Positions 9,201-11,252 of a stretch of DNA of 64,000 nucleotides are shown here, piece by piece. Source of the stretch: Verrucomicrobiota bacterium (GTDB lineage Bacteria > Chlamydiota > Chlamydiia > Chlamydiales > JAEYWL01); assembly GCA_023428915.1 (NCBI GenBank), contig JAEYWL010000046.1, positions 3 to 64,002 on the forward strand, written 5' to 3'. Every line of letters starts with the position of its first letter. The first letter of the stretch is position 1. The notes below the pieces were generated by a model that was not told the origin of the DNA, did no database searches, and saw only the letters and a list, made by a program, of their open reading frames with translations. A program made the position numbers and the translations under genes.

Positions 9201-11252
9201 GAAGTTGGGGACGAAGCATTGGCAGCAGCCTTCATGTTAGGGGATCAAGACTTTTTATTTACAATCACACAGCAATTAGGCAAGCAAAAAACGGCCGAAC
9301 AGTTACAGACCTTGTGCGACCAACTCCCAGTAATAGCTGCAAATTTTAAAGAAGCCATCGAATCTATTTCCTATCGCTTAGACGAGCGCCATATGGATGC
9401 AGAAAAAGTTAAGTTAATTAGCGGAGTTGAGAAGGAAAAACTTGAACCCTTTGACTACAGGCAAATTCTTGAAAGGTTTTTGTCAATTAACTTTACCGAT
9501 TCCGCACAGCCTGGGTATCGCGATCCCCAGAAGTTAAAAAATGACGTTGGCGTTAATAGTTATGAATTAGTTTCCGTAGCGACTTTAAAGATCGGCTTAG
9601 ACAAGCTGATTAATCGTTATATCCCTGAAAATACCCCTTACGTAGGCACACCGCCTGCTTTCATAGGTGACCCCCCAGAACCTAATCCTGAACTTGTTAA
9701 GTTCTACGACAATTTAAAAAAGCACTATCAAGAAATTTTATACTACATCGCAGAGCTTGAAAAACAACCGCCGGAAGACGCAAGGGAGTTGCGCGATCAG
9801 CTAGATAAAATATCCAGGAATTTTATCGATTTAGCCATTTCCTCGCTGCATTGCGGCAGCCGCTGGGTCTCTGAAGCTTTAGAATCCATTTCTGACTTAA
9901 AAGGGGTTCCAGTAAGCCTTGAGCTGATGTTGAACTGGCTGTTTGCCGGCATGCGCACCATGGTGGCAGAGCAAATCGCGGGCTATTATGGAGCCGATTC
10001 CCATACCACCAATACTGTAATGGGCTTTTTAGGCGCTCGTATGGGTTTACCCAAAGCCGAAGATATCATCGAACATCTCAAGGATACTGACTTGAATGAA
10101 GATGAGGTCATTAACCGTTTTTATCATTTGTACACCCCAGCCAATATCCTTGCTTATTTAGTGGAGCATCTGGGAGATAAGCCCCGATTAAGGAATGCGG
10201 TTTTAGACTGGTTTCGCGATAATCCGGGAGAGTTTAAAAAAGAGCATTACGAAGCCATTAAGGACGATCTTAGGCACCCTAAATTGACTAACCCCCTGAA
10301 GCCTGAGTCAAGCGGCAGCTTGCAAACTAAGGACGATCTTGGGCAAGACCCTGAATTGACTGAACTCCTGAAGCCTGAGTCAAGCGGCAGCTTGCAAACT
10401 GGGGAACTGAATGTTTTTCTCGAAAAAATCAAAGAATATCAGTTTTCAAAACATTTGGCAGAAAGGTTAAAAGAATTAGAGTCTATTAAGGCCAAAACCC
10501 CCGATGAGTATCCCTTAGAGCTTGAAAGTATTGTCCGTCAAGAATTTCGCAACATTCTTATACTCATCAACGGTATTCTTACACCCATCAATTTGAAACC
10601 TATCCTTCACCATTTATCACAAGAGCCTGCTTTACAGGCAGCTTTTGAGGATTTTTTTAAAAGCAGCCTTTCTGAATCTTTGGAAAATTATAATCGTGCT
10701 TTAGATGTATTGGAAACGACGATTCGAAAAATAGACCAAGCGAATAGGCTTGTGACTTACCTTAAAGGAAAAGGAGTGGCATTGGATAATGAGACAGCCA
10801 TGCGTGCAATCGGCCATAAAAGTCCGCTGACTTTAATAGAAGGGATGATAGATAGGCTACGGGGTAATGAGTTTGCCAGCACTGTTTACACAAGCATAGG
10901 CACTCAACTGCTGGAAGCGATCCCTGACTATGTAGAAGAAAGCGAAGGGCTAAGTCAAATACTTGAAGAGGCAGTTACAGAAGAGCAAAAATTAGATCTA
11001 GTAGCAAAAGTATGGAAGCATATATTTAATCAGCAATATGCTGAAGAGCTAAAATCAATGTTAAAAGTTGCAAGGCAGGAGCCTGCGCTTATCGAATCCA
11101 TTTTACAAGCGTTGCGGCTGCCCACTCAGGAAAACATTGAAGCCTGCAAAACGGTATTATTGCGGGAGCCTCTATTCCAATACCGTTTTGATAAAGAGCA
11201 GCTGATGCGCCTTCTTGTAGAACACCAGTTTTTACAACGCCGAGCCGCCTAA
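6234..11252 (+). CDS. Giant paralogue 1 (1672 aa): Inc-like / candidate secreted effector, function unknown
   Basis: Uninterrupted 5-kb ORF with RBS aaggtagg. Collinear similarity to 12869-17815. Hydrophobic hairpin near aa 373-430 (AGLALFVSAMAGA ... WPVIMTTLAGLAGAATILSALSAMLISGIL). Ankyrin-like LLEWALMQGVPELAALMLKKG. Conserved C-terminal motifs. Confidence 0.8.
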   Translation: MGYAPSFSSWSWVETHTDQQVLDKLQAEPSFLIKLEEGTPTAKQAGRLILILTKMPASSDTVIQEQFNGQIKLLFNFLAGQNLVPKARNVDRAEEGKLKAIFRRMLPASELERGLKQAIQHNQPQLAYEILNCLERMDANLKGPHNEPLLEWALMQGVPELAALMLKKGHLPKKEVFDTLHLAVHADKTEFFGNDLFVTQLLESYNDPRQLILLALTMKEEGMQQRLLGKIDNWQEHLNDCNFFQKILKQGPGVAVKIIQGLKTIPEPNRANFITENLKGLTCLAALHVSALQALKELAPPDEFKEVIKNPETGVLFFARDTETLDCIASTISKSEFFKLLSSPLPSILRQNFESIHFHKENLFDQGSKVSLKAGLALFVSAMAGASYNSISDPKNEKWPVIMTTLAGLAGAATILSALSAMLISGILQSTEASKYKSKVALIHASALQVLLLSLRLDPKHSKLQSFVEYFLTHFSASELAKLMETLPFNPFLGSLDKEYPEFKFSEEDLIKNIKLLKKYYTNEEVADILSKNYSQYFKNTILDRKIILNIARELGAQFVESWFTKIFDQNFREIRNSINLKQTKILFNLMIKYLGMEKVLKFLEPYLRASPFEGYNLYLIDNFIFNLPAITLKELFKAESNTLLNGYLINQLIKEESTSFFDFLKNLPYEERVEFILEHNIFHLIAEQKSPAFAEALSASPSKLYSYFAELLKHPDKAVQKNSWRAVLSKEVKGKNVCALAPPSVLNFFAKKLSVIEICKLLEKGPYKYRIELLFLMSKNETIFNKNSGLDMPVFLRQKDKNGTIFHQLVESPNKGEYIFKTISKNLSTSEVRELLTKKNSDSLTAIDSMLSTHNRKILRNIKKHYPDVIKEYISVDNPQILPLLKNETDYQLVKSFDSRFAYLELFYENGMLRKTFKVKSEKIESWLVPSSEFDQLANIVKSEEIEKWLVPSFPKFAQWAKKQSFDDESTSLNYLAKAKIDPSEFVKEVGDEALAAAFMLGDQDFLFTITQQLGKQKTAEQLQTLCDQLPVIAANFKEAIESISYRLDERHMDAEKVKLISGVEKEKLEPFDYRQILERFLSINFTDSAQPGYRDPQKLKNDVGVNSYELVSVATLKIGLDKLINRYIPENTPYVGTPPAFIGDPPEPNPELVKFYDNLKKHYQEILYYIAELEKQPPEDARELRDQLDKISRNFIDLAISSLHCGSRWVSEALESISDLKGVPVSLELMLNWLFAGMRTMVAEQIAGYYGADSHTTNTVMGFLGARMGLPKAEDIIEHLKDTDLNEDEVINRFYHLYTPANILAYLVEHLGDKPRLRNAVLDWFRDNPGEFKKEHYEAIKDDLRHPKLTNPLKPESSGSLQTKDDLGQDPELTELLKPESSGSLQTGELNVFLEKIKEYQFSKHLAERLKELESIKAKTPDEYPLELESIVRQEFRNILILINGILTPINLKPILHHLSQEPALQAAFEDFFKSSLSESLENYNRALDVLETTIRKIDQANRLVTYLKGKGVALDNETAMRAIGHKSPLTLIEGMIDRLRGNEFASTVYTSIGTQLLEAIPDYVEESEGLSQILEEAVTEEQKLDLVAKVWKHIFNQQYAEELKSMLKVARQEPALIESILQALRLPTQENIEACKTVLLREPLFQYRFDKEQLMRLLVEHQFLQRRAA
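8991..9096 (+). repeat. In-frame 66-bp-period duplication inside giant gene 1
   Basis: gtgaaaagtgaaaagatagaaagctggcttgtccctagtt (8991-9030) is repeated as gtgaagagtgaagagatagaaaagtggcttgtccctagtt (9057-9096). It encodes KSEKIESWLVPS / KSEEIEKWLVPS. Confidence 0.85.
10259..10399 (+). repeat. In-frame tandem duplication (69 + 72 bp) inside giant gene 1
   Basis: Two adjacent units, each ending ctgaagcctgagtcaagcggcagcttgcaaac. Each encodes LKPESSGSLQT. Confidence 0.9.

Follow-up and report, generated by a model that had tools for sequence, protein, structure and literature searches.

A chlamydial protein domain with one invariant cysteine on a predicted helical scaffold without known relatives

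Two large neighbouring genes in the genome of an environmental chlamydia share a conserved C-terminal module, and the question they raise is whether this module is an enzyme. The genes lie in a 64,000-nucleotide (nt) stretch of contig JAEYWL010000046.1 from a Verrucomicrobiota bacterium placed in the Chlamydiales (assembly GCA_023428915.1), which we call the window; all coordinates refer to it. A sequence-only reading of this DNA had described the module as carrying invariant Cys and His motifs, as belonging to no recognisable family, and as possibly a thiol-dependent enzyme such as a protease, deubiquitinase, ligase or transglutaminase-like fold. Our searches show that the domain defines a large unnamed family that, judged by sequence, has so far been seen only in chlamydiae, and we rate it as a putative effector enzyme with a candidate catalytic Cys on a predicted scaffold without known relative. 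The two genes and their copies of the domain (aa, amino acids; HMM, hidden Markov model) are:

6234..11252, + strand: gene 1, encoding a large helical protein of 1672 aa with the module (open reading frame list and translation)
12869..17815, + strand: gene 2, encoding a full-length paralogue of gene 1 of 1648 aa (open reading frame and translation)
9186..10298, + strand: the domain as modelled in gene 1, aa 985-1355 (HMM envelope aa 1006-1356; family HMM E 6.6e-85; AlphaFold model md60495b9446a)
15818..16915, + strand: the same domain in gene 2, aa 984-1349 (family HMM, hmmsearch E 2e-76)

Over their full length the two proteins are 39-40% identical (BLASTP and alignment), and hmmsearch of the six-frame translation of the window found module copies in these two genes only. 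The stretch first noticed, 9378-10235, is the conserved core of a domain of ~365 residues (~aa 985-1350 of gene 1), and long relatives align from ~aa 993 of gene 1. All of the motifs described in the sequence-only reading are present, once per protein and in identical order in both paralogues; its positions were right to within 6 nt, the largest offset being at SSLHCGSRW, which it had started 6 nt late. On the + strand, with gene 1 given before gene 2, they are:

9378-9395 and 16010-16027, + strand: LDERHM
9486-9500 and 16118-16132, + strand: INFTD
9513-9527 and 16145-16159, + strand: GYRDP
9726-9743 and 16337-16354, + strand: YQEILY
9840-9866 and 16451-16477, + strand: SSLHCGSRW
9996-10007 and 16607-16618, + strand: DSHT
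10128-10139 and 16745-16756, + strand: LYTP
10209-10235 and 16826-16852, + strand: WFRDNPGEF

The Cys of SSLHCGSRW and the His of DSHT are separated by exactly 50 residues. In 50-aa sliding windows, identity between the paralogues is 0.50-0.70 over aa 1026-1350, compared to a mean of 0.405, and it is 0.20-0.24 just upstream of the module and 0.18-0.32 just downstream. The module is thus the best-conserved part of both proteins, conserved far above its flanks as had been claimed. Conservation between two paralogues is nevertheless weak evidence for catalysis, because five of the nine gene 1 cysteines seem to have a gene 2 counterpart when read from the pairwise alignment; decisive support for conservation comes from the wider family.

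This family emerged when 1.84 billion cluster representatives were searched exhaustively by HMMER with a profile of the C-terminal 690 residues: 291 of them matched at E<=1e-3, of which 184 also passed E<=1e-10. Nearly all relatives share a common core at profile positions ~93-365, corresponding to gene 1 aa ~1073-1345, and eight match the whole C-terminal half. Every relative with a nameable source is chlamydial (Chlamydiales/Chlamydiota), with one weak exception. The named sources are metagenome-assembled genomes (MAGs) of Rhabdochlamydiaceae, Simkaniaceae and Parachlamydiaceae, a Waddliaceae MAG, Parachlamydia sp. AcF125 and the cultured Parachlamydia acanthamoebae UV-7. The exception, a Korobacteraceae MAG (L016; Acidobacteriota), gave a partial match at E 5e-5 with 26% identity over ~107 residues and is probably spurious. 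The named relatives are all annotated as 'hypothetical' or 'ankyrin repeat domain-containing'.

The choice of search method mattered. A word-indexed search of 5.8 billion proteins retrieved one fragment (P0001) and gene 2 itself, whose identical protein (P0002) was already on record from a contig of 148 kb, even when a 25-sequence profile was used; taken alone, this negative would wrongly have suggested an orphan, against the 291 representatives found exhaustively. Similarly, a scan of GTDB genomes with an alignment of the gene 1 type gave no match, whereas an alignment of the short type described below did retrieve relatives. No relative was found on plasmids by tblastn.

Searches of Pfam and NCBIfam with the whole proteins, the module, and the N- and C-terminal parts of genes 1 and 2 assigned the module to no family at significance. 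At a relaxed threshold of E<=5, 25 module sequences gave no consistent Pfam match, no peptidase and no NEL (novel E3 ligase) domain, and in sets of 10, 25 and 32 relatives Pfam and NCBIfam recognised ankyrin repeats only, the remainder being sub-threshold or borderline noise. Searches of PDB sequences (phmmer and profile) returned nothing meaningful, and the literature, searched by theme as well as by accession, yielded no description of the domain. The earlier statement that the module has no recognisable family therefore stands for Pfam, NCBIfam and PDB sequences, and gives way to a large, unnamed chlamydial family at the level of relatives.

We counted residue conservation in an alignment of the 150 listed of the 291 representatives, which by construction are <=50% identical as whole proteins; their median pairwise identity within the module is 28%. 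The most informative positions, in gene 1 numbering unless stated, are:

9852..9854, + strand: Cys1207, 150/150, the sole fully invariant column and candidate nucleophile
10002..10004, + strand: His1257, 147/150 with D, Y and N as exceptions, candidate general base
9954..9956, + strand: Arg1241, R in 146/150, K in the remaining 4, mid-helix between the Cys and His helices of the model
9861..9863, + strand: Arg1210, R in 134 and K in 12 of 150, within the C-G-x-R motif
9390..9392, + strand: His1053 of LDERHM, H in 140/150, with V/L/Q/G/Y in six aligned members
9489..9491, + strand: Asn1086 of INFTD, N in 135/150 and otherwise mostly D, E, Q or T, in a loop of the model
9645..9653, + strand: Gly1138-Thr1139-Pro1140 loop, with G in 139, T in 140 and P in 149 of 150
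16463..16465, + strand: Cys1199 of gene 2, equivalent to Cys1207 by motif position, an invariant column in alignments A1, A2 and A5
16613..16615, + strand: His1249 of gene 2, equivalent to His1257 by motif position, an invariant column in alignments A2 and A5

The signature residues of genes 1 and 2 are near-invariant across the 150 representatives: the Cys of (H)CGxR, the His ~50 residues later and an Arg between them, the Gly-Thr-Pro loop, and an F...Y pair plus a Trp near the C-terminal end. Further near-invariant columns are Phe1296 (147 of 150), Trp1326 (147), Tyr1158 (145), Tyr1300 (145) and Gly1208 (142). Invariance of the Cys and the His across homologues had been set in advance as the test of the enzyme proposal, and the proposal came through it. 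At such divergence, a lone Cys that ranks above any core residue is a strong sign of a chemical role. Asn1086 is a possible third polar catalytic or oxyanion residue.

We then asked what kind of scaffold would hold these residues. AlphaFold2 modelled aa 1045-1345 (window 9366-10268) from a 25-sequence alignment with a mean predicted local distance difference test score (pLDDT) of 85.3 and a predicted template modelling score (pTM) of 0.62, and aa 985-1355 from a 31-sequence alignment with pLDDT 88.5 and pTM 0.74. Four extra helices at the N-terminus of the longer model are predicted with confidence (pLDDT ~90), placing the start of the domain near aa 985. Both models agree on a nearly all-helical fold in which the only strands are a hairpin at aa ~1102-1112 and two-residue bridges.

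In both models, Cys1207 is predicted to be the last loop residue before a 16-residue helix (model residues 224-239), that is, at the helix N-cap, with Arg1210 one turn into the same helix. A 24-residue antiparallel helix bearing Arg1241 would follow, and His1257 would be the second residue of the next-but-one helix from the Cys (272-282). The Gly-Thr-Pro loop lies between model helices 131-145 and 168-193. His1053, Asn1086, Thr1139, Cys1207 and His1257 are all predicted in loops or at helix ends, and Arg1241 in the middle of its helix. From this up-down-up arrangement we infer that Cys and His would lie at the same end of the bundle. A mean-field direct-coupling analysis of the 150 sequences, searched for contacts between the Cys loop and the His loop, returned gap-driven pairs only.

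Foldseek searches of both models against the PDB gave no significant relative (best E 1.1, TM score <= 0.23), and the matches contained no cysteine peptidase, transglutaminase, OTU, CE-clan, NEL, HECT or SidC structure. Against BFVD, the aa 1045-1345 model had its best match in Terrestrivirus, a giant virus that infects amoebae; the matched protein is 346 aa long and uncharacterised (A0A3G4ZQ12; E 0.03, probability 0.99, TM 0.35, 14% identity). This borderline match hints that the domain may be common to chlamydiae and giant viruses of the same hosts, and we treat it as a lead only; two pattern scans of IMG/VR found no relative and gave no support.

The setting of the domain within its proteins varies along two main lines. 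Short members (<760 aa) make up 81 of the 150 representatives; most of those listed are ~600-650 aa long, and the module begins at ~aa 100, or at aa 170 in one member. Ahead of the module, 62 of the 81 have a hydrophobic segment. Another group, of ~900-950 aa, has extra hydrophobic segments, single or paired, near the C-terminus. The genes downstream of short-type members were searched for a conserved partner, and no such gene emerged. In long members the module is C-terminal, with ~0-300 residues after it, and 24 of 32 carry N-terminal ankyrin repeats; other Pfam domains in this group amount to two single-member matches.

Genes 1 and 2 have a hydrophobic segment and a conserved tail:

7338..7523, + strand: bilobed hydrophobic segment of gene 1, aa 369-388 and 399-430 (Kyte-Doolittle)
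13994..14167, + strand: bilobed hydrophobic segment of gene 2, aa 376-390 and 400-433 (Kyte-Doolittle)
10269-11249, + strand: C-terminal tail of gene 1, ~320 residues past the module
16886-17812, + strand: C-terminal tail of gene 2, ~320 residues past the module

The two paralogues are only 14-22% identical across the hydrophobic segment, yet its hydrophobicity is kept. Conservation of the tail extends to the eight closest relatives; several more distant members, some of them of the short type, match the profile as far as positions ~540-557 too. It may be a second, separate domain. In gene 1 the tail gave a borderline Pfam match to Fes1 (armadillo-like) at aa 1451-1506 (E 2.4e-5, 25.7 bits, just above the cut-off).

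Together these observations bear on the nature of the domain. A thiol-dependent enzyme, in the generic sense, remains the best reading. More specifically, and with moderate confidence, we read the module as the catalytic domain of host-directed effector enzymes that would act through Cys1207 as nucleophile and a covalent thio-intermediate, with transfer chemistry of the NEL/SidC type as our best single guess. In the mechanism we envisage, Cys1207 would be activated at the helix N-cap, since a helix dipole can lower the pKa of a Cys; His1257 would serve as general base, an anionic part of the substrate would be bound by Arg1210 and Arg1241, and Asn1086 and/or His1053 would assist as further polar residues. 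The intermediate would be a thioester on the Cys, which would accept ubiquitin, a ubiquitin-like protein or an acyl group and then pass it on.

Targeting would fall to the region ahead of the domain, which in most long relatives consists of ankyrin repeats. In genes 1 and 2, the ~980-aa helical region with its bilobed segment could instead act as an anchor in the inclusion membrane that leaves the domain on the side of the host cytosol. By hydropathy, this stretch of ~50-60 residues between large soluble regions of a chlamydial protein resembles the hydrophobic domain of inclusion membrane proteins (Incs). Classical Incs, however, are far smaller proteins and usually carry that domain close to the N-terminus, whereas ~370 residues precede it in genes 1 and 2.

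The layout is most like that of NEL effectors such as IpaH, SspH1/2 and SlrP. These have an N-terminal repeat domain followed by an all-helical domain of ~300 residues with a single invariant, thioester-forming Cys, and they reach the host by type III secretion from intracellular bacteria. The 24 ankyrin-bearing long relatives resemble them in having repeats followed by a predicted all-helical domain with one invariant Cys. The likeness is one of layout: the repeats here are ankyrin rather than leucine-rich, the motif is (H)-C-G-(S/A/G)-R rather than C-x-D, an invariant His is present, and there was no NEL structure among the Foldseek PDB matches and no HMM match, so we regard it as analogy and not homology.

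Several points weigh against our interpretation. Known Cys-His hydrolases are almost all alpha/beta proteins, and an all-helical scaffold would be unusual for them. A purely helical scaffold without a pocket had been named at the outset as grounds for doubting an enzyme, and the models go half of the way there, being almost entirely helical with one small hairpin. The ligase guess is an analogy of architecture, because no fold or sequence link to NEL, SidC, HECT or other ligases emerged. Candidates for an acidic third residue are not strongly kept (in gene 1 numbering, D1199 in 69%, E1280 in 77% and D1325 in 71%). With respect to targeting, genes 1 and 2 themselves have no significant ankyrin match: aa 116-188 of gene 1 match Ank_2 at E 0.13, scoring 13.3 bits against a cut-off of 27.3, and gene 2 has no match. 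Three closer relatives (P0004-P0006) are without a strong hydrophobic segment.

We also entertain, tentatively, a bolder version of the favoured reading, in which the family would represent a new structural class of Cys-dependent host-modifying enzymes, so far known from chlamydiae alone, with a fold unlike any in the PDB, recruited by ankyrin repeats or anchored in the inclusion membrane, and possibly shared with giant viruses that infect amoebae. Such a class could be, for example, an independently evolved thioester-forming ligase for ubiquitin or ubiquitin-like proteins, or an enzyme of an undescribed post-translational modification.

The close second among the explanations, in itself an unlikely one, is a thiol hydrolase (a protease, a deubiquitinase or ubiquitin-like protein protease, or a deamidase) on a new helical, non-papain scaffold. 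Here Cys1207 would attack a peptide, isopeptide or amide bond, with His1257 as base and Asn1086 as oxyanion or orienting residue. An invariant Cys at a helix N-cap followed by an invariant His does recall the Cys-His(-Asn/Asp/Gln) hydrolases, with an identical order and a similar spacing, and Asn1086 is Asn in 90% of members and otherwise D/E/Q/T; the model, however, has no beta-sheet lobe to carry the His, which sits in a helix, and two conserved Arg beside the Cys are untypical of papain-like sites. The Foldseek lists contained no cysteine peptidase and Pfam no peptidase even at E<=5 in 25 members. Chlamydia-like bacteria do have many deubiquitinases, some with transmembrane anchors, but an HMM-HMM deubiquitinase pipeline applied to Simkania yielded known classes only (PMC10643670). 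Thus, while the enzyme proposal survived the conservation test, the protease, deubiquitinase or transglutaminase-like fold suggested with it is unsupported, because the models are helical and Foldseek found no structural similarity to thiol hydrolases.

The module was also compared with the papain- and transglutaminase-like enzymes (clan CA peptidases, the deamidases Cif/CHBP and SseI, YopT, OTU and others). As in those enzymes, the Cys is predicted at the N-terminus of a helix with the His downstream, and the Cys-His distance of 50 residues falls within their range of ~40-120 (56 in Cif). Their His is on a beta-sheet lobe, whereas His1257 is in a helix of a model with one small hairpin. This helical His, together with the lack of Foldseek (PDB), Pfam or PDB-profile similarity, speaks against membership.

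Less likely still is a module without enzymatic activity, either a helical scaffold that binds a host protein or lipid, or a component with an intrabacterial role in the envelope or in development that is not an effector. A nearly pure helical fold is found in many scaffolding effectors of chlamydiae and Legionella, and aromatic or hydrophobic side chains are frequent among the best-conserved positions (F1087, Y1158, F1296, Y1300, W1326); the commonest form of the family, a ~620-aa protein whose hydrophobic segment directly precedes the domain (62 of the 81 short members), could be a housekeeping protein anchored in the inner membrane. An absolutely invariant Cys at 28% median identity, above any core residue, is hard to explain by packing, because a core Cys is readily replaced by Ser or Ala, and the invariant polar residues are mostly at helix ends or in loops. 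The repeated fusion to ankyrin repeats (24/32) and the expansion of paralogues likewise point to host targets.

The weakest explanation is a metal site (for example zinc) formed by Cys1207, His1257 and either His1053 or an acidic residue, structural or metallo-enzymatic and with a Cys that is not a nucleophile. In its favour, one Cys and two His rank among the best-conserved positions, and helical bundles often hold a metal between helix ends. We consider it improbable: a single Cys is conserved, with no CxxC, HxxxH or other paired ligand motif; six aligned members have V, L, G, Q or Y in place of His1053 but keep the Cys, which is invariant; acidic candidates are only 69-77% conserved; and no metalloenzyme family or fold was matched.

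Two specific identifications were also tried and rejected. The string HCGSR invites comparison with Cys-based protein tyrosine phosphatases (H-C-X5-R(S/T)), which fails on spacing, the Arg being at +3 (C-G-x-R) and position +6 being S or G; where those phosphatases have a strand ahead of the Cys, the model has a helix. CT622/TaiP of Chlamydia trachomatis is a type III effector of ~650 aa; its C-terminal domain has been solved, is all-helical and weakly resembles isoprenoid synthases in structure (PMC5962693). Isoprenoid and terpene synthases likewise appear in our Foldseek lists, at E values of 3-9, which are not significant. CT622 is, however, confined to Chlamydiaceae and absent from environmental chlamydiae (PMC5962693), whereas all named members of the family with the conserved Cys and His come from environmental chlamydiae; its solved domain, expected in the PDB copies we searched, was matched neither by profile nor by Foldseek.

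Environmental chlamydiae are a large, ancient intracellular group in which the activity of very few effectors is known. A family of at least 291 sequence clusters with one absolutely conserved Cys, a confident model without a solved relative and repeated ankyrin fusion thus offers a concrete, testable candidate for a new class of enzymes acting on eukaryotic hosts. The domain boundaries given here and the cultured source P. acanthamoebae UV-7, with its proteins CCB86037 and CCB86043, make the family accessible to experiment. Should the domain prove to be a ligase, a deubiquitinase or an enzyme of a new modification, the short list of bacterial means of hijacking host signalling would be extended by a new scaffold, and hundreds of proteins now called 'hypothetical' or 'ankyrin repeat' would become annotatable once an activity is established.

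The flanks of the module had been described as repeat-rich, and Tandem Repeats Finder (TRF) together with a repeat finder located three in-frame tandem duplications:

8990-9121, + strand: 66 nt x2, gene 1, upstream of the module
10259-10400, + strand: 72 nt x2, gene 1, directly after the module
17279-17380, + strand: 51 nt x2, gene 2, in the C-terminal tail

They correspond to 22, 24 and 17 codons with 84-89% matches, and two of them directly flank the module. They suggest recent duplication events and fast-evolving linkers around a constrained domain.

Paralogue pairs lie close together in three genomes: the window, L001 and P. acanthamoebae UV-7. L001 (contig JBAMKY010002500.1, GCA_048222815.1, positions 1-4313), from a related MAG, has the same tandem pair, in the order end of a gene-2-like protein, 365 nt, and start of a gene-1-like protein. 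In P. acanthamoebae UV-7, the two proteins with ankyrin repeats and the module (CCB86037 and CCB86043) are six accession numbers apart.

In the window, genes 1 and 2 are separated by a single gene on the opposite strand and lie within a G+C-poor stretch (~4000-18000; 36-41% compared to 44-48% around it) that also contains:

4361-5868, - strand: AbiEii/AbiEi type IV toxin-antitoxin pair
11492-12514, - strand: ATPase with AAA_14 and DUF4143, between genes 1 and 2

Neighbouring genes encode protoporphyrinogen oxidase, ClpB, two PTS IIA-like proteins, dUTPase, AccD and superoxide dismutase. The low-G+C stretch is flanked by hemY/clpB on one side and a conserved ptsN-ptsN-dut-accD-sod block on the other, and looks like an effector or mobile island; the order ptsN-dut-accD-sodM is that of Chlamydia trachomatis. 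This neighbourhood, together with the relatives of the two genes, marks the organism as chlamydial. Promoter and terminator scans around genes 1 and 2 gave nothing above shuffled background.

A palindromic intergenic element brackets gene 2 in two copies (window 12646-12775 and 17872-17948). Its arms read TAGACATC(T/A)TTCAAAAC ... GTTTTGAAAGATGTCTA and enclose ~43 or 96 nt, and a lone arm occurs at window 69-85; arm matches number 5, compared to 0.02 expected by chance. The element could be of the miniature inverted-repeat transposable element (MITE) or repetitive extragenic palindromic (REP) kind, or a scar of the duplication or insertion that made the second paralogue.

Elsewhere in the window, an open reading frame of 1161 aa (25761-29246, - strand) has a single family match, a partial one at aa 604-650 to the DarT single-stranded DNA ADP-ribosyltransferases (Pfam E 7e-6, NCBIfam E 0.04). 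It may encode another large effector, with an ADP-ribosyltransferase-like core.

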